Assembly (NCBI GenBank): GCA_963788655.1
Contig: CAWBHS010000039.1
Location: 32,001 to 96,000, forward strand
Origin: an uncultured Verrucomicrobiae bacterium
Lineage (GTDB): Bacteria > Verrucomicrobiota > Verrucomicrobiia > Limisphaerales > JAFGQR01
DNA: 64,000 bases
Direction: 5' to 3'
In this document: piece after piece, positions 9,632-20,575 of the stretch
How positions within the stretch are numbered: the first letter of the stretch is position 1
Layout of the letters: each line of letters opens with the position of its first letter
Made by a program: the position numbers and the translations under genes
Notes under the pieces: model-generated
The model's input: only the letters and a program-made list of their open reading frames with translations
Databases searched by the model: none
Told to the model about the DNA's origin: nothing

Positions 9632-11697
9632 ATGGAAACTGGAAAATCTGAAACCGAACGCAAGACCCTCGACGAGCGCCAGAAGATGACCGAACTGGAG
9701 CGCATCCGCCACTCGTGCGCCCACGTCATGGCCACCGCCATCCTGCGCCTGTGGCCCGATGCCCAGTTCGCCTCCGGCCCGCCGGTCGAGAACGGCTTCT
9801 ACTACGACGTCGAACTCGAACACCGCATCTCGCCCGAGGACTTTCCCGGCGATCGAGGCGGAGATGAAGAAGGAGATCAAGGCGAACCACGTCTTCGAGA
9901 GAAAGGTCGTCACGCGCGAACAGGCGATCAAGGACTCGGAGAGCGGCCGGCTGGGCGGCACTGACCGAACGGCCGGGCAACCCAGCAAGTTCAAGCTGGG
10001 TAACCTCGAAGCAAATCCCCGAGGGCGAGCCGATTTCCTACTACAAGAACGGCGACTTCATTGACCTGTGCGCCGGGCCGCACGTGATGCGCACCGGCAA
10101 CATCGGCGCCTTCAAGCTCACCAGCGTGGCCAGCGCCTACTACAAGGGCGACGAGAAGAACCCGCAGCTCCAGCGCATCTACGGCACGGCGTTCAAGAAC
10201 AAGACCGAGCTCGAGGAATACTTCAAGATGCTCGAGGAGGCCAAGCGCCGCGACCATCGCAAGATCGGCGCGGAGATGGGGCTGTTCGCGATTGACACCG
10301 AATACGTCGGGCCGGGCATGCCGCTGTGGCTGCCCAAGGGCACGGTGCTCGTCGAGGAACTGGAGAAGCTGGCCAAGGAAACCGAATTCGCCGCCGGCTA
10401 CGTCCGCGTCCGCACGCCGCATCTGGCCAAGGAGAAAATGTATAGAACCTCCGGCCATCTGCCGTATTACGCGGAGTCCATGTTTCCGCCGATGGAGCTG
10501 GCCTTGGACGAACAGAAGCTCGCACGAAAAACCGAGTTGCAAACGTCGAAAGCCTTGGAACTAGAAGACGGTCGAATTGGATGACTGACATCCAAGACTC
10601 GAGGACAAGAACAGGCTGAGTTGGCATCATCGAGAAGAAGATGCAGAAGAGTTGGGCGAAGAGAATTTCGCGACGAGAGATTGCTCGAGAAATCAGCTTG
10701 GCCAGTCGAAGGCGTCTCGCGACGCGGGACCGCTATTACCTCAAAGCCATGAACTGCCCGCATCATCACCGCATTTTTGCGGCGGAGCCGCAGCAGTTAT
10801 CGCGACCTGCCGTTGCGCCTCGCGGAATACGGCACTTGCTATCGCTACGAGCAGAGCGGCGAGTTGTTCGGCCTCATGCGCGTGCGTTCGCTCAACATGA
10901 ACGACGCCCACATCTATTGCACCGAGGAGCAGTTCGCCGCCGAGTTCAACGCCGTGAACGAGATGTATCTGAAGTATTTCAAGATCTTCGGCATCGAGAA
11001 ATACGTCGATGCGCTTCAGCACGCACGTCGCCCGAAGGGCTGGGCAAGAAATACGTCAACGAACCCGAGCTGTGGAAGAAGACCGAGGACATGGTCCGCC
11101 AGGTGTTGATCGATTCGAAGATCAACTACGTCGAGGTGCCGAACGAGGCGGCGTTCTACGGTCCGAAGATTGACGTGCAGGTCTGGAGCGTCATCGGCCG
11201 CGAATTCACCCTGGCCACCAACCAGGTGGACTTCGCCGTGCCCGCCAAGTTCGGCCTGACCTACCGCGACAAGGACAACACGAACAAGACGCCGCTGTGC
11301 ATCCATCGCGCGCCGCTCGGCACGCACGAGCGGTTCATCGGCTTCCTCATCGAGCATTACGCCGGGCAACTTCCCGCTCTGGCTCGCGCCGGATCAGGTC
11401 CGCGTCATCACCCTCAACGACGACGAAGCGCTGATTGAACTACGCCAAGCCCATCGTGAACGAACTCCGCGCCAACATGGTCCGCGTGGAAGCCGATTTC
11501 AGCGCCGACCCGATCAAGGCGAAGATCGCCAACGCCGAACAATTGCGCGTCCACACCATGCTGGTCATCGGCGGTCGCGACATGGAAGCCGGCGACGTCA
11601 GCGTCCGCCTCCACGGCAAGGCGGCCCGCAAGGCGCGAAGCCGAAGGCGGAGGTCGTGGCGGATATTCTGGCGAGCATCAAAGAGCGGAGGGCGTAA
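9632..11697 (+). CDS. thrS: Threonine--tRNA ligase (frameshifted)
   Basis: [76 protein letters not shown] and the C-terminal anticodon-binding domain. Confidence 0.95.
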
Positions 11698-11866
11698 CAG
11701 TCTTTGCCGGCAATCAATACTCCGCACGGATGATTCCGTGCGGGGTTTTCGATTATTTGAATGTGCCAGCGAAAGCCGGTTCAAGTTTGCCACTCTGGCC
11801 ACGCCCGTTTGGCGGCGATTCCAACACTCACCGGTTCAAAAGGGCGAAAGCATAAAGGAGCAAAAA

Positions 11867-13006
11867 CTAAAGCTCCCTCACACAACGGAACCCAAAGAAG
11901 CTGAAGGTATCGCCCGGGTTGACGTTGTCGCGATAGGCACACCCCGCATAGTAGGCGGCGGCGTTCCACCCGCCACCGCGCATCACACGGCCGCCCGATC
12001 CGGGCCCTGCTCCTGTTGGATTATTTGTGGTGGGCTGGCCATACGGCGTTCCATACCAATCCCAACACCACTCCCACACATTCCCCGCCATGTCGTAAAG
12101 GCCATAACCATTCGGCGCAAAAGACCCCACCGGACTCGTCGCCGGACTCGTTCCCCCGACACTCCCAATAGCGTTATAGCCGTTGGGACCCAAGTCATAG
12201 CTGTAACCGAAGGTCGCTCCAAAGTAATTGGCCTGACTTTCCGAAATGCTGTTGCCCCACGGAAACCGTAGCCCGCTCAACCCGCCCCGCGCCGCCTTCT
12301 CCCACTCCGCTTCCGTCGGCAACCGATACCCGTTTGCTGCCAAATTCTGATAGACTGTCGTTCCCTCGTCCCCATTCGTGAACACCTGCGTAAGTCCCGC
12401 ATCCGTGTAATACACCGGCGGCAACCCCGCCTGCTGTGACCGAGCATTGCACCACTTCGCACAATCAAACCAGTCCACCGTCTGCACCGGATGATTCGCT
12501 GCCTTGCCCGCACCCGCATGCACAAAATCGTAGCCATGGCTCGTGGCATACGCATACACATTCGTCCATTCGCTCCACGTCACCTCGGTCTGGTCCATGT
12601 AAAATGCCGACACATACACATTCGTCGGATTCGCATCGGTTATTTCAGAATCATTTGTAGCGGTGTTATAGAAAAGGTAGTTGCCCATGGTGAACGAACC
12701 CGCCGGTATCAGCACCATGCCCGCCGTCGTATCGGTCGAGGCTAGCAACCGGAAATAACCCGCCGGGGAGGAGTTCGTCACCGTCGCGGCATTGACCGTG
12801 ACCGCATTGCTCGCCGTCACCCAGTTGGGCGCAGCGAGATTGGTGGTCGTCTGCAACACGTAATTCGTCGTGCTCACCGGCCAGTAAAGAATGGATTGCC
12901 CGCCCGGTGCCGGGGCGATGCCCAGATTCGTTACTTGCGCGTTGATCAGTTGAACGCCAGCAATGAGCGCCAGCCCGATGAACAGGGATTGTAGTTTGGT
13001 TTTCAT
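11867..13006 (-). CDS. Secreted formylglycine-generating-enzyme (SUMF1/FGE-sulfatase) domain protein
   Basis: Signal peptide; MVLIPAGSFTMG, FYMDQTEVT, HPVQTVDW, YRLPTEAEWEKAARGG, PNGYGLYDMAGNVWEWCWD, RGGGW, GFRCV. Confidence 0.92.
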   Translation of the reverse strand: MKTKLQSLFIGLALIAGVQLINAQVTNLGIAPAPGGQSILYWPVSTTNYVLQTTTNLAAPNWVTASNAVTVNAATVTNSSPAGYFRLLASTDTTAGMVLIPAGSFTMGNYLFYNTATNDSEITDANPTNVYVSAFYMDQTEVTWSEWTNVYAYATSHGYDFVHAGAGKAANHPVQTVDWFDCAKWCNARSQQAGLPPVYYTDAGLTQVFTNGDEGTTVYQNLAANGYRLPTEAEWEKAARGGLSGLRFPWGNSISESQANYFGATFGYSYDLGPNGYNAIGSVGGTSPATSPVGSFAPNGYGLYDMAGNVWEWCWDWYGTPYGQPTTNNPTGAGPGSGGRVMRGGGWNAAAYYAGCAYRDNVNPGDTFSFFGFRCVREL

Positions 13007-13126: not shown

Positions 13127-13442
13127 CTGGCTCGCGCCGGATCAGGTGCGCGTCATCACGCTCAACGACGACGAAGCATTGATCGACTACGCCAAGCCCA
13201 TTGTGAATGAACTGCGCGCCAACATGGTGCGCGTGGACACGGATTTCAGCGCGACGCCGTTCAAGGCGAAGATTGCCAACGCGGAACAACTGCGCGTCCA
13301 CACGATGATGGTCATCGGCGGTCGCGACATGGAAGCCGGCGCGGTGAGCGTGCTTCTCCACCACGTCGGATCGCAAGACGCGAAACCGAAGGCGGAAGTC
13401 GTGGCGGATATTTTGGCAACGATTCGGGAACGGCGAAATTAA
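13127..13442 (+). pseudogene. Second, diverged copy of the thrS 3' end (anticodon-binding domain only)
   Basis: Direct repeat of 11379-11697; the first 21 nt are identical (CTGGCTCGCGCCGGATCAGGT). No catalytic domain upstream. Confidence 0.85.
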
Positions 13443-13756
13443 TTGCAGAGAATTCAGCATGGCGGCAGTAATCAAACCCGGGGACGGCAAGACTCCGTCG
13501 AGCCCTGACTTCCTGGAAGCGCTTGGGTGAAGCGTTAGTCCCAGGAAGAAACCGCCAGCCTGAAGATCGGATTCAGTTACACTTTTTGCTTGCATTAGCG
13601 AGAGCCGAAGTTTAGGCGTACCCCCATCGTAACCGGATGTTGCCGTTGGATGAACGCCCGCGCTTGCTTCGGCGTCACCCCGGCCCAGATGGTTGAAAAA
13701 CGAAACGACGTGTTCTAGGAAATCTGCACTGAGCAAAGTGTGACGAAAGGAATAGC

Positions 13757-14137
13757 GTGAAGAACCGATTGGGAATGGATTCTCCAGGGCTGGCGAAGAT
13801 CTTAAGCGCTATGGCGGCATCAGCGATGGAAGTGCAAGCCCGTTTCGACCAAACGCATTTGCAGGAACTGGAAGAATTTGCGCAGTTCGCCGCCACCGTC
13901 CCCACCGACACCCTGCCCTTGGTGCTACCCCTGGCTCCGGCGCGCCAGCGCGTGGACACGTTCCGTCTCGCGTGGGCAATGGAATTGTCCATCGAGCGCC
14001 GCCATGGTTTCGCCATTACCGTTCGTCTAATCAACCTCGGCTACGAGGCGCGTTTTGGGGTGCGACAAAGCAAAGCAGCGCGGATTGAATTGCAGGTGGA
14101 GCAAGTGCCGGTGGCGGCGGCACAGTTGAAAAGTTGA
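13757..14137 (+). CDS. Hypothetical protein, paralog A of the unknown operon
   Basis: 126-aa ORF with the motif AMAASAMEVQARFD...LAPARQRV...INLGYEARFG...IELQVEQVP. Confidence 0.7.
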   Translation: MKNRLGMDSPGLAKILSAMAASAMEVQARFDQTHLQELEEFAQFAATVPTDTLPLVLPLAPARQRVDTFRLAWAMELSIERRHGFAITVRLINLGYEARFGVRQSKAARIELQVEQVPVAAAQLKS

Positions 14138-14204
14138 AGGAGTGCGGCGGTCGTTTGAATGAACATCGTGGAAGAGAAATGACACTGAACGGAAGGAACT
14201 AACC

Positions 14205-14837
14205 ATGCCAGTCAAACCAAGCAAGTTGATCAATGACCTGAATTATGTGCCGAACATTGTGGGCGCACTGGGATTAAGCATCGCCGCCGCGCAGAAGGCG
14301 TTCAACCTCGACTATTTGCAGAATGTCGAGCGGCTGATTGCCCTCGCCCGATCGATTTTTGGTGAAAAAATCCTCGACGACCAGGGCAAGCCCAAAGACA
14401 TGACCGACGCGCAGAAGGCAAAGCTCGAACAATTCGCGTCGTTCTTGAAGGAACTGCTCGTGGCCACGGCGCCGCCGCGTTACCAGTTCACCGAAACCAC
14501 TCTCAACGTGAAACTGGACCTGGCGCAATCGATGGACCTGAACGTAGGCGCGGGCCTGGGCGTCGGATTTGGTGCCGTGACCGTGAGCGCTTCACTGGCC
14601 ATCGGTTACGGATACGACTATCGGGCGGCCGCGGAGTGTCACACAGTCATCCACGCCATTCCGGCGGACCCCAATGTGTTTCGTCCGCTGCTGGACCGAG
14701 CCAAAGAAGTGAATGACAAAATGCTCGCGCTTTCAGATCCCGCCGGCATCGATAACCGCATCATTGAGCAAAGCCGCGCCATTTTCGAGCAGGTCATGGG
14801 CGTAAAGGCGCCCACGCCGGTCGAGGCGCCGAAATAG
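14205..14837 (+). CDS. Hypothetical protein, paralog B
   Basis: AAGGA RBS; 210 aa; LGLSIAAAQKAFN...APPRYQFTETTLNVKLDL...VSASLAIGYGYDY...TVIHAIP. Confidence 0.85.
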   Translation: MPVKPSKLINDLNYVPNIVGALGLSIAAAQKAFNLDYLQNVERLIALARSIFGEKILDDQGKPKDMTDAQKAKLEQFASFLKELLVATAPPRYQFTETTLNVKLDLAQSMDLNVGAGLGVGFGAVTVSASLAIGYGYDYRAAAECHTVIHAIPADPNVFRPLLDRAKEVNDKMLALSDPAGIDNRIIEQSRAIFEQVMGVKAPTPVEAPK

Positions 14838-14877
14838 TCCGAGAGACTGCGAGGCTCGCAACGGCAGCGGCTAGTCC

Positions 14878-14945
14878 GGGGCGCGGACATTCTTGTCCGC
14901 CTTGGAGAACTGGGCGCAGCAGGCGGACAAGAATGTCCGCGCTCC
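14878..14945. repeat. REP-like palindrome pair
   Basis: GGGGCGCGGACATTCTTGTCCGC ... GCGGACAAGAATGTCCGCGCTCC. Confidence 0.75.
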
Positions 14946-15044
14946 AATGCGAGTGTTTGGGAATTGTTCTGCGGCAGTAATTGGCTGACAGCAAAGCTGC
15001 CGACAAGCTCGGAATGGGAAAGAACTCGCTAACGAATAAATATC

Positions 15045-15971
15045 ATGCCGCTTAAGAAAATAGATGTCGTCAATGCCGCCAGCGATTTGCGTGACCGCGC
15101 CAAGCAGTTGAGCGACGCGGCAGACGCGCTGTGGGACAAGGCCCGGAAACAAAGTGGCACGGAGATTCCGGATAACGTACTGGGCGATGAACGCAACGAA
15201 GTACTCATCGAACACGGCACGCTTGAAACCGATTGGGTGGCGCTGGCCCAGGCGCTCAATGTGTCGCTCGAAGGCACGAGCACGGATTTTGCCGAGTTCC
15301 TCACCACCACCGGTGCGGCGCTCGTGGCCACCCAACGGCAATTGGACACCCAGTCCAAAGCGTACCTGGACAGCCTGGCGGGCAGTCCGCACGTGCTGCC
15401 GTCCGTTTTTCGCATTCCCAAATTGTCGGGCGAAATGAAGTTTGCCCTGGAGCGTGTGGCCGGGCAAAAGCTGAACCTGGTCTTCTACGGGAAGGAGGAA
15501 AAGAACACCGCGCTCAACCAGCAGTCGATGTCATTCGAGATCGTTTCGGCGCCGCCCCCGCCGGAATTCATGCAGAAGTTGCTGACGGTGGCACCGCGGC
15601 TCGAACTGGTCCTGGCGCTGCCGGAACGGGAACGGATCATGGCGGTGGTGCAGGCCTCCGATCTCGAACCGAAACTACTACCCCAAGCGGATATGCTCGA
15701 GCATCCGGACGAAGTCTTGATCACTCCCGCGGTGGTGCCCGGTGAGGAACGGGCGTCGAAATACTTTCTGCTGTACGCCAACGAAACCCAGGAAGAGCTC
15801 ATCGGCGCGTGGCACGTCGATGTGGCGGCGGCCGAAATCGTGACGGTATATCGCTACGACTTGAAGCCGGGGTCCAAGGAAACGATCAAGCCGTTCAAAG
15901 ACTTCACGCTGGCGTTGGCCAAATTCCAGGCGGCTTACCTGAGACAATTGCGGCCACCGGGCAATGCCTGA
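15045..15971 (+). CDS. Hypothetical protein, paralog C
   Basis: 308 aa; TGAALVATQRQLD...LPSVFRIPKLSGEMKFAL...MSFEIVSAPPPP, with N- and C-terminal extensions. Confidence 0.8.
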   Translation: MPLKKIDVVNAASDLRDRAKQLSDAADALWDKARKQSGTEIPDNVLGDERNEVLIEHGTLETDWVALAQALNVSLEGTSTDFAEFLTTTGAALVATQRQLDTQSKAYLDSLAGSPHVLPSVFRIPKLSGEMKFALERVAGQKLNLVFYGKEEKNTALNQQSMSFEIVSAPPPPEFMQKLLTVAPRLELVLALPERERIMAVVQASDLEPKLLPQADMLEHPDEVLITPAVVPGEERASKYFLLYANETQEELIGAWHVDVAAAEIVTVYRYDLKPGSKETIKPFKDFTLALAKFQAAYLRQLRPPGNA

Positions 15972-17292
15972 GGAAGCCGTCAAAGATTTGCGACATCTGC
16001 CCGCAGACGTGGCGGACACCGCGGCAACCTTGCCCCGAGCCGGCGATCAACTGGTTCGCCTTTCCGCCGAGCAACTGGTTGATAATCCGTTGGGCTGGCG
16101 TCAGTGGCTGGTATTGCGACAGGTGGAATTGCGCTGGCGCTTCTACGTGGCGAAGACGGGCAAGCGGGTGGTGTTCTTTTTCTTTCGCAAGCAATCACCG
16201 GTCGAAGTGGTGATGGATGCTCACCTGGAGTTTCGGGTCGCCCCGTCGCCGCTCATTCCGCGACAGGTGCCGCTGGTGCCGCGCGAGATGCTGTGCCAAT
16301 TAGTCTGGCCGCGCCTGCTGGCGAAACGGTCCGTTGGGACCACCGACCGCGTGACCTTTCAACTCGATCAAGCCGGCAACGAAACACTGGACGCGATCCA
16401 TCCGGAGACAGGCCCGGACGAGGCCGAGCTAAGGTACTTGCGCGGACCCACGGAAATCCCGACCCGAGGTGCTGATGGCCAATGGCGCGTCGCACCGTTT
16501 ATCGCTTTCATCGAGGCGGTGCGCGCATGGATTGGCACGGGCTTGCAGCAGGGGCGGGAGGAAATTCTCACCGTGCCCTTGCCCAATGATCCGCTGGTGG
16601 CGCGCCGGATACTCTACTATGGGCTGGTGTCGTTCTGCGCCGCGGCCAACGCCACGAGCGACCTCACCACCCGGCCGACGATGCCCCCGCTGTTCGAAGA
16701 ATTGCAGTCGCCTTACGACATCACCGGCTTCCGGGCGGGAGTCGTATTGCGGTTGAAAGCGGACGGCACCGAGATCGCCGCGCTGGATGATGATCATCCC
16801 GTGCAACTGATGATGGAGTTGGAGGTGCAACGGACACCGGCGGCGGGCGCCCGCGCCAAGGTGTGGCTGGGACCGCCGGATTTTCTACTGACCGGGCCAC
16901 TGCACCAAGCGTTCTTCGATGAGTTTCTGGATGGTTTGCCCCTGTTCGCCAACTCGCCCGTTGCGATGGCCGCAATGCTGGCGCTGCGGACATTCGTGCT
17001 GCAAAACGCGAACCGGATTTCCATTTTCCGCGTCAAACGCGATGGGCGGCGAGATACCAACGCATTGGTGGTGACAGGAATGTGGGAAGGCGAGCGCATC
17101 GCCGTGGTGCTGAAAGGCGTCTTTGAAGTGGATACCGCAACCACGCCGCCGCAGGTCCAACGCCGGGGCAACATCCGCTTGCTGCAAACCGGGCCGGTGG
17201 AACCACAGGATGCCATTCTGGACGAAGACGTGGTCCGGCATTTCTTCCATTTGATGGCGGCGTTGAAATCCTGGGGAGGCGTGTTGCCATGA
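15964..17292 (+). CDS. Hypothetical protein D (degenerate paralogous module at the N-terminus)
   Basis: 442-aa ORF overlapping the upstream stop, and overlapping the downstream start by ATGA. Confidence 0.7.
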   Translation: MPEEAVKDLRHLPADVADTAATLPRAGDQLVRLSAEQLVDNPLGWRQWLVLRQVELRWRFYVAKTGKRVVFFFFRKQSPVEVVMDAHLEFRVAPSPLIPRQVPLVPREMLCQLVWPRLLAKRSVGTTDRVTFQLDQAGNETLDAIHPETGPDEAELRYLRGPTEIPTRGADGQWRVAPFIAFIEAVRAWIGTGLQQGREEILTVPLPNDPLVARRILYYGLVSFCAAANATSDLTTRPTMPPLFEELQSPYDITGFRAGVVLRLKADGTEIAALDDDHPVQLMMELEVQRTPAAGARAKVWLGPPDFLLTGPLHQAFFDEFLDGLPLFANSPVAMAAMLALRTFVLQNANRISIFRVKRDGRRDTNALVVTGMWEGERIAVVLKGVFEVDTATTPPQVQRRGNIRLLQTGPVEPQDAILDEDVVRHFFHLMAALKSWGGVLP

Positions 17293-17642
17293 CACCGCGA
17301 GGCATCGGACGTTGGATTCGCCTGCGAGTGCGGCGCGCGTGGCAGGGCCTTCTTCGGAGCCGCGGGATCACCTTGGATTTGCGGAAACGCGGCGGCAGCC
17401 GCACGGCCATCGCATTGGCGTCGGGCTGTGTTGGCGAAATCATTTCCACGCCGGCCCGAAGGCAGTTCGCGGTGTTGCCGGAGGTCGAGCCAATGTTGAG
17501 GGAGGCGGGGGCGCGATTCCGGCAGGGCCAATTGTTTTCCGCCTTGATCGAGCCCGTGCAAGCCGGGGTCAACATCCGCGCCCGCGTCAAGGAACAGGGT
17601 GCGCAGGCCGCGCAGCACTTGATTCTGCTTGGTGGCAACTGA
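17289..17642 (+). CDS. Basic hypothetical protein E
   Basis: ATGA coupling to gene D; 117 aa. Confidence 0.5.
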   Translation: MTPRGIGRWIRLRVRRAWQGLLRSRGITLDLRKRGGSRTAIALASGCVGEIISTPARRQFAVLPEVEPMLREAGARFRQGQLFSALIEPVQAGVNIRARVKEQGAQAAQHLILLGGN

Positions 17643-17726
17643 GGAATCAGCAGCGTGGGAGGGGGAAGCAGGAATCACTCGGAATCCACATGCATCTCGC
17701 CCCAGCAGCAGCCGGATGCGTGAACG

Positions 17727-20575
<2,849 letters not shown>

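Follow-up and report, generated by a model that had tools for sequence, protein, structure and literature searches.

What do five adjacent genes encode when no family model recognizes any of their products? This question is raised by a cassette of ~3.9 kb on the + strand of contig CAWBHS010000039.1 from an uncultured Verrucomicrobiae bacterium, which was analyzed within a 64-kb stretch of that contig (the window, to which all coordinates refer). A sequence-only reading of this DNA had described the genes, here named A to E, as an operon built from one repeated helix plus β-hairpin module and had suggested that it encodes a hetero-oligomeric ring, tube, filament, or pore. In our analysis, profile comparisons identify A, B, C, and D as true paralogs through one module of ~100 residues, the cassette order is kept in at least eight bacterial phyla, B is set apart by its conservation and carries a long amphipathic hairpin pattern, and relatives of B are linked to genes with STAND, CHAT, and TIR domains. 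The explanation that we tentatively favor is that the cassette encodes a pore- or ring-forming complex of several paralogs, related to the Pepco/Trypco2 (and DUF2589-like) β-barrel death effectors but lacking a protease.

Gene content and distribution of the cassette

The five genes have the following positions and products, with lengths in amino acids (aa):

13757-14137, + strand: gene A, 126 aa, GTG start, the minimal module protein
14205-14837, + strand: gene B, 210 aa, the conserved core subunit
15045-15971, + strand: gene C, 308 aa, with an N-terminal helical part, the module, and a C-terminal domain without a known fold
15964-17292, + strand: gene D, 442 aa, with the module, then a β domain, then two helix-plus-sheet units
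17289-17642, + strand: gene E, 117 aa, isoelectric point 12, a small basic accessory protein without the module

All five co-oriented open reading frames (ORFs) are present on the + strand as the sequence-only reading had placed them, and they are read as coding because G+C is maximal at codon position 3 and minimal at position 2 in each frame (the window has ~59% G+C). This composition, together with tblastn relatives in other loci, rules out spurious ORFs as an explanation of A–E, and coding composition is also the reason why the E frame is preferred over an alternative ORF at 17312-17770. The overlaps of C with D (8 nt, 15964-15971) and of D with E (4 nt, 17289-17292), from which translational coupling had been proposed, are present; A and B are separated by 67 nt and B and C by 207 nt. 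A Shine-Dalgarno-like stretch, AAAGGAA, lies ahead of the GTG of A, and GGAAGGA is found 7 nt before the ATG of B. Public collections list the cassette proteins as hypothetical proteins and hold the A protein of the window as a 103-aa form with a later start; the 126-aa ORF is the better model because the A-family alignment is conserved upstream of the 103-aa start. Kyte-Doolittle windows over A–E revealed neither a signal peptide nor a transmembrane helix, the highest 19-residue mean being 1.60 at the tip of the B hairpin, and scans of A–E against Pfam, NCBIfam, PADLOC, and PHROGs gave nothing credible, in agreement with the earlier statement that signal peptides, enzyme motifs, and secretion genes are absent. 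The same four collections yielded no match to a characterized system, and a literature search found no paper describing an A-B-C-D-E cassette.

The B family is real but rare: 272 relatives were found at E ≤ 1e-3 in a collection of 5.8 billion proteins, and when HMMER was run over all 1.84 billion cluster representatives, only 189 matched at E ≤ 1e-3. The 272 relatives are 50–61% identical across phyla, with the best non-self matches at 59–61%, and the few that have a source name are called hypothetical protein. Loci were surveyed in contigs of one genome per species (185,579 species genomes); a B relative is encoded in 74 of the 98 stretches that the search patterns picked out. By a hand count from record titles, with phyla assigned from general knowledge, the 74 loci belong to Acidobacteriota (37), Pseudomonadota (13), Myxococcota (6), Bacteroidota (6), Verrucomicrobiota (5), Planctomycetota (3), Desulfobacterota (2), and Leptospirales (1), with one unclassified. 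Two of them come from cultured carriers, Luteolibacter marinus NBU1238 (L036) and Roseomonas sp. LUR113 (L031).

Gene order could be assessed in 61 of the 74 loci, those with at least 600 nt upstream and at least 3600 nt downstream of B. Family hidden Markov models gave the architectures ABCD (37 loci), ABCDE (11), ABC (7), BCD (4), BC (1), and B alone (1), and A-B-C-D(-E) thus stands in fixed order in 48 of the 61, which bears out the expectation that the genes are conserved as neighbors. The BCD loci contain weak A matches and several of the ABC loci a short D-like ORF; in 52 of the 61, the fourth gene is D or resembles it. Clustering places a C homologue directly after B in 68 of the 74 loci. 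In tblastn searches with the window proteins, an A match immediately preceded B in 21 loci and a D match followed C in 28, and in the best 40 of 69 match rows C lay just downstream of B. Fifteen Acidobacteriota loci have a divergent fourth gene, which in the 10 assessable ones is recognized by the C profile via the module. A search with the A profile returned 13 proteins, none with a Pfam label. The single-sequence search with D found only D itself among 7,999 scored candidates, and D relatives were therefore sought through the loci. Mean column identity is 41% for B compared with 20%, 14%, and 22% for A, C, and D, respectively, and the B alignment has 29 invariant columns in 28 sequences, clustered at the charged base of the hairpin. 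B, which the sequence-only reading had singled out as the major subunit, is accordingly the conserved core subunit of the cassette.

The fifth position is more variable. The 94 candidate ORFs that follow D in 51 loci and the window (52 sources) include an E family of 14 sequences (13 loci and the window); its members are basic proteins of ~120 aa that often overlap the D stop by 4 nt, and neither the E of the window nor its 13 relatives match Pfam. Elsewhere this position is occupied by at least four small families that are unrelated to E and differ by lineage, with examples at L065:11977-12645, L039:10859-11206, L068:11251-11703, and L025:11649-14351. The last of these is a 900-aa ORF that overlaps the end of D and has weak Cohesin and bacterial-HORMA matches (HORMA E 2.6e-4, below the cut-off). 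Among 52 C, 46 D or D-like, and 13 E relatives, Pfam gave no credible match; three unrelated matches with E-values of 0.0036–0.0085 were all below the cut-offs, and the C of the window had none.

The shared module and the long hairpin of B

The earlier claim that four of the genes share one module was examined with family alignments built from the related loci (A1, B, 28 sequences; A2, A, 43; A3, C, 53; A4, D, 32; A5, E, 14). Pairwise BLASTP among A–E gave no significant pair, the best being A 31-118 with B 65-153 at 23% identity and E 0.05 in a five-sequence database. Profile comparison by hhalign joined A with B (probability 95.9%, E 5.9e-9, 114 columns), A with C (96.6%, E 5.4e-10, 101 columns, C residues 75-175), and C with D (94.2%, E 1.2e-7, 89 columns, D residues 12-101), and the controls for these three pairs, reversed templates and 20 column-shuffled templates each, never exceeded 1.0%. 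Direct comparison was not significant for B with C (1.6%), A with D (12.7%), and B with D (0.4%), and homology is therefore transitive along the path B-A-C-D; in this sense the all-against-all comparison links the four families. The module occupies the following positions:

13775..14116, + strand: module in A, residues 7-120, from the A–B and A–C hhalign comparisons
14232..14669, + strand: module in B, residues 10-155, from the A–B comparison and the B model, with extra helical sequence inserted after the first helix and ahead of the Pro-started strand
15267..15569, + strand: module in C, residues 75-175, from the A–C and C–D comparisons
15988..16266, + strand: module in D, residues 9-101, from the C–D comparison and a model with helix 2-40 and hairpin 54-65/80-94

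The module opens with a helix in which one Gln is nearly invariant; a helical insert, long in B, may follow, and then come a Pro-started strand, a hairpin, and a final strand with Pro at its end. A contains this layout and a short tail. The Gln is nearly invariant in the 43 sequences of the A family (Q27) and invariant in the 53 sequences of the C family (Q97), and every peptide motif that the sequence-only reading had quoted was found in the translations. D, which it had described as degenerate, is more than that, since the N-terminal 100 residues of D carry the module. E was considered as a fifth copy and excluded, its profile probability against A–D being 0.5% or less.

The structure of B was modeled with AlphaFold2 (AF2) from the 28-row alignment, with a mean predicted local distance difference test score (pLDDT) of 72.6 and a predicted template modeling score (pTM) of 0.52. 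The model predicts helices at residues 15-52 and 68-88, strands at 92-121 and 124-152, and helices at 156-168 and 181-198. The two strands form the feature on which much of the later argument turns:

14478..14660, + strand: predicted long hairpin of B, residues 92-152, amphipathic and glycine-rich, from the AF2 model and residue alternation

The 60 residues of this hairpin alternate strictly between a hydrophobic/aromatic face and a polar/Gly face, and a Gly-rich tip is followed by a Tyr-rich girdle. The Foldseek list of B is led by the ring/collar of FliF, and local Foldseek alignment over 58-62 columns returned the stems with which anthrax protective antigen, CDTb, and iota Ib form pores (probability 0.90-0.99, E 0.1-0.28), so that the sole structural look-alikes of the hairpin, none of them significant, are long barrel-forming hairpins. 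A complex prediction with four copies of B, run without controls, gave scores of 0.10 and 0.15 against a mark of 0.42 and speaks neither for nor against binding. The AF2 model of D (pLDDT 87.6, pTM 0.87) predicts helix 2-40, the hairpin 54-65/80-94, a β domain, and two helix-plus-sheet units. The best Foldseek matches of D, in a list extending to E 0.1, were tandem NTF2/VirB8-like proteins (E 1.3e-3 to 1e-2) and ketosteroid isomerase; assignment of an NTF2-like fold is tentative because of the low TM-scores and weak E-values.

Genomic surroundings and the B–C spacer

Two Myxococcales loci (L005 and L007) contain a solo B without A, C, or D, 52% and 51% identical to the B of the window, which lies 64 nt and 31 nt, respectively, downstream and on the same strand of a gene for a 1601- or 1610-aa CHAT + nSTAND1 + WD40 protein (CHAT E 3e-14 and 1e-18; nSTAND1 E 6e-87 and 8e-89). 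In two Zoogloea loci (L047 and L050) the cassette is followed after ~120 nt by a gene for a TIR + nSTAND1 + FGE-sulfatase protein, without a protease. BLAST of both STAND proteins against all locus ORFs found the STAND part in no further locus. A protease lies near B solely in L005 and L007, and no protease family was found in or adjoining the cassette of the window. One Myxococcales contig carries both forms ~33 kb apart, a solo B after a CHAT-STAND-WD40 gene in L005 (contig range 54110-70700) and a full A-B-C-D in L028 (contig range 87869-104441). The position of B relatives beside CHAT- or TIR-bearing STAND NTPases, the strongest hint at function and one that the sequence-only reading had missed, favors a pore over the tube or filament also proposed earlier. 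Neither clustering of the loci nor a scan of the 57 nearest flanking ORFs (28 loci, of 260 ORFs listed) revealed a recurring flanking gene, and with unrelated neighborhoods and a varying fifth gene the cassettes therefore behave like accessory modules.

In the window, the cassette lies between two aminoacyl-tRNA synthetase genes. The gene thrS (10641-11700, +) shows a frame change near its 3' end, and this end is duplicated as direct repeats at 11379-11672 and 13127-13417 (blocks of 60, 176, and 56 nt, 86–92% identity), which looks like the scar of an insertion into the thrS 3' end. The repeat copies bracket an FGE-like gene, the second copy ends ~340 nt before A, and no integrase was seen there. 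The FGE-like protein (11867-13006, - strand, 379 aa, with a signal-peptide-like N terminus) is encoded ~750 nt upstream of A and aligns by BLASTP to the FGE-sulfatase part of the L047 STAND protein (L047:10948-13650). FGE-matching ORFs also lie near the cassette at L068:2024-5191 (-) and L073:18-3038 (+); this may be chance, since the FGE-sulfatase domain is common in these phyla. On the other side, the leucyl-tRNA synthetase gene (17727-20575, - strand) is split over at least six ORFs in different frames, with many stops in any single frame and its HIGH-type and KMSK-type motifs in separate ORFs. The broken synthetase genes may be pseudogenes or may reflect local errors in the assembly. Both the 3.9-kb cassette that they flank and large ORFs elsewhere in the window are intact.

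Two non-coding features accompany the genes:

13443..13756, + strand: leader upstream of A, non-coding, presumed promoter region
14878..14945, + strand: inverted repeat between B and C, arms 14878-14902 and 14921-14945 of 25 nt, 96% complementary, with 18 nt between them

In the leader, no ORF with coding-like composition, no site in a σ70 scan, and no Rfam family was detected, and Rfam and tRNA scans of the cassette region found nothing. The hairpin in the B–C spacer, which had been described as a repetitive (REP) element able to stabilize the B mRNA, is real as an inverted repeat, and the intergenic RNA fold has a z-score of -5.55 against shuffles. The REP label is wrong because the hairpin is single-copy, its arm occurring once in the 64 kb, and a REP element was accordingly dismissed. 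A hairpin conserved after B was likewise rejected: the B–C gap has a median of 24 nt in 68 loci, long spacers are exceptional, and when 25 spacers of at least 45 nt (24 loci and the window) were folded, only 4 had z below -3.5, that of the window being one of the four. The hairpin lacks the T-run form of a terminator except for a match in a 5-bp sub-stem, and a σ70 and terminator scan showed no enrichment over shuffles. The spacer hairpin is possibly an mRNA stabilizer or an attenuator that sets the ratio of B to C–E.

Known systems and competing explanations

On the explanation that we favor, B, which is probably the most abundant subunit, would oligomerize via its 60-residue hairpin into a barrel, and the Gly-rich, aromatic-girdled hairpin tip would enter the cytoplasmic membrane from the inside. 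The Pepco-sized A, together with C and D, could nucleate, cap, or restrain the B barrel because these proteins carry the same putative oligomerization module. The extra domains of C and D, which in D would be the tandem NTF2-like units, may be the sensing or regulatory part, and E may be a small basic accessory at a position where other lineages place different genes. The role of such an assembly would be regulated membrane permeabilization in a conflict or abortive-infection setting.

The names Trypco1 and Trypco2 were given to domains that co-occur with trypsin in NTP-dependent conflict systems (Kaur et al. 2020, eLife, PMC7159879). Trypco has recently been renamed Pepco and is reported to be a protein of 117 aa with a basal amphipathic helix that constitutively forms 9-10-mer β-barrels, hydrophobic on the outside and charged on the inside, and becomes a pore-forming toxin after C-terminal cleavage by a neighboring protease (Evans et al. 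2025, bioRxiv 10.1101/2025.11.14.688446). The cassette appears to resemble Pepco in its small module of an amphipathic helix and β strands (126 aa in A compared with 117 aa) and in strands with a hydrophobic face opposite a polar/charged face. The layout of a helix followed by strands, predicted for B and D and suggested by the alternating residues, may correspond to that of Pepco. The solo B directly after a CHAT-STAND-WD40 gene corresponds to the protease-plus-sensor pairing described for Pepco, whose neighbor is a trypsin- or caspase-like protease that is usually fused to a sensor or STAND NTPase. The tail that is cleaved from the SDS (sodium dodecyl sulfate)-resistant Pepco barrel is charged and Pro-rich; the tails in the A family appear short, variable, and Pro/charge-rich, which from the alignment is only suggestive. 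In contrast to Pepco, no protease belongs to the cassette, either in the window or in 57 of the 61 assessable loci, four paralogs and E take the place of one small protein, and B is enlarged by a helical insertion and two C-terminal helices and has a far longer Gly-rich hairpin.

The resemblance to DUF2589-like and Trypco-like modules that the sequence-only reading had drawn has some support, in the form of weak leads. Three of the 43 A-family members match Pfam Trypco2 (PF19631) at E ≤ 1, all below threshold, and the β part of the best of them, the A of locus L004, aligns in register to positions 21-77 of the 78 positions of the model. No match at E ≤ 1 was found for A–E of the window, and none for members of the B, C, D, and E families. 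The nearest ESM Atlas neighbors of B, identified without an alignment, have scores of 0.97, 0.92, and 0.91 and belong to clusters in which 20%, 68%, and 94% of members carry DUF2589 (PF11655), and the third neighbor of A, likewise without an alignment, has a score of 0.87 with the family in 60% of members; the language-model clusters nearest to B and A thus carry DUF2589, whereas its Pfam model is matched by none of the B-like proteins tested and, at E ≤ 1, by none of the 43 A members. Neither Pfam threshold was reached. We know of no mechanism for DUF2589, on which the literature searched contained incidental mentions only, with none for PF11655. The run of four adjacent short DUF2589-related genes in Archaeoglobus fulgidus (AF0414-AF0417), mentioned in PMC3949148, recalls the multi-paralog layout of the cassette.

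Other pore-forming and ring-forming systems offer more distant likenesses. Residues 92-152 of B have the sequence pattern of the amphipathic membrane-spanning hairpin of β-pore-forming toxins, and the stems of anthrax protective antigen, CDTb, and iota Ib are likewise long hairpins in which hydrophobic residues alternate with small/polar ones; the stem of staphylococcal α-toxin is glycine-rich. Homology with these toxins is unsupported (E 0.1–0.28), however, and the similarity is confined to the hairpin, and unlike the toxins the cassette has no secretion signal or receptor-binding domain, so that B would act from inside the cell. In FliF RBM3, at the top of the Foldseek list of B, a helix/sheet unit is likewise joined to long hairpins, which there assemble into a giant vertical barrel, but the matches have E 0.025 or worse, probability 0.08–0.23, and TM-scores of 0.16 or less, and B lacks transmembrane anchors, export signals, and a flagellar or secretion context. 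By analogy, the membrane attack complex of complement (C6–C9) is also made of paralogs that share a pore module, with C9 as the main polymerizing subunit where B may be here, and in this analogy the other paralogs would start or steer assembly; its fold and lineage are unrelated, and sequential assembly in the cassette is an analogy only. A corresponding variant, in which the four paralogs build a hetero-oligomeric pore and A, C, or D act as sensor-coupled initiators that template a B barrel in the cell's own membrane, is in our view doubtful. In it, a death effector of the Pepco type would be licensed independently of a protease, and the domains unique to C and D would read the trigger.

Several results weigh against a β-barrel death effector. 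That the proteins oligomerize and insert into a membrane, what A, C, D, and E do, and that the cassette serves defense are all inferred in that explanation. The best Trypco2 match, that of the L004 A protein (E 0.0012), reached 19.5 bits and missed the cut-off of 24.2, and Pfam DUF2589 matched none of 28 B members at E ≤ 1 and none of 39 divergent B-like representatives at E ≤ 0.1. PADLOC-DB 2.0.0 returned a single chance-level match, of D to MTase_II (E 0.041). The hairpin is the lowest-confidence part of the B model (pLDDT 60–66), Foldseek found no match at E ≤ 1e-3 for B in the PDB or for D in the PDB or BFVD, and profiles of B, A, C, and D against PDB sequences gave nothing below E 0.4, with no match for B at E ≤ 10. 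The link to STAND proteins concerns 4 of the 74 loci in two lineages, the cassette of the window and most others lack a protease or NTPase, and the 57 flanking ORFs scanned encode an ordinary mixture that includes glycoside hydrolases, kinases, regulators, UvrA, and a helicase, with no defense-island signature. With 50–61% identity across phyla, B looks more like a structural polymer than like a fast-evolving immune effector. Domains of Ig-like type add to this, as they are commoner on exposed proteins with a structural role: one B homologue has a C-terminal TIG domain above the cut-off (E 2.7e-6) and two more have He_PIG matches below it (6.6e-5 and 1.5e-3), the three proteins being P0123, P0087, and P0254. 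Given the conservation of B and these C-terminal domains, a structural polymer fits at least as well. Long B ORFs also occur in L029, L025, L023, and L031, with extensions of up to 565 aa that have no Pfam match.

Such a polymer would be a non-lethal ring, tube, filament, or scaffold in the cytoplasm or envelope, with B as the major subunit and A, C, and D as minor, initiator, or terminator subunits. The drift of A, C, and D to 14–35% identity beside a conserved B is the pattern of a major subunit with minor partners, and the FliF ring/collar at the head of the B Foldseek list (not significant), the ordinary flanking genes, and the scarcity of sensor NTPases and proteases among the cassettes are consistent with it. 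We nevertheless regard this assembly as unlikely: the cassette is rare and patchy, with 74 loci in 185,579 species genomes and 189 clusters among 1.84 billion proteins, A–E have no export signals for an envelope structure, and the pairing of a CHAT-STAND-WD40 protein with a solo B and of a TIR-STAND protein with a cassette is hard to fit to a housekeeping scaffold. The module could instead be a protein-protein interaction domain through which A–D, as signaling or scaffold proteins, recruit each other and an effector encoded elsewhere in the genome. One preprint counts Trypco2 among the effector-associated domains, for conflict systems with a trypsin-like effector (bioRxiv 10.1101/2023.09.22.558884). 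Extra domains in C and D, those of D being weakly similar to NTF2/VirB8, a fold often used for binding, and the absence of an enzymatic effector from the cassette in Pfam scans would suit an adaptor. This explanation appears distinctly improbable, as Pepco/Trypco has since been reported to be the pore-forming effector itself (bioRxiv 10.1101/2025.11.14.688446), the 60-residue amphipathic Gly-rich hairpin of B is not a feature that an adaptor requires, and the cassette is self-contained, with no conserved partner gene.

It is very improbable that the cassette is a remnant of a structural module of a phage or other mobile element, for example tube-like proteins with Ig decorations. Paralogs of rising size around one fold unit, Ig-like domains on some B homologues, a patchy distribution, and the position of the window cassette beside the duplicated thrS 3' end, a possible integration scar, could be explained in this way, but B gave no tblastn match among 50,697 phage and 72,556 plasmid records, PHROGs gave none for A–E, D had no BFVD match at E ≤ 1e-3, and no phage genes occurred among the 57 flanking ORFs scanned.

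Five protein families without a Pfam, NCBIfam, PADLOC, or PHROGs model that stand in fixed order in at least eight phyla therefore represent a conserved machine that is still undescribed. The literature searched does not describe the cassette itself, whereas the functional type to which we tentatively assign it, a β-barrel effector tied to STAND/protease systems, is already known. If the assignment is correct, the recently described Pepco class, made up of single proteins gated by a protease, would come to include hetero-oligomers that regulate themselves, DUF2589-like gene clusters would gain a first functional handle, and the cassette would provide a bacterial system for studying how paralogous subunits split the initiation and growth of a pore. 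Because Luteolibacter marinus NBU1238 and Roseomonas sp. LUR113 are cultured, the idea is directly testable and the carriers could be used for genetics.

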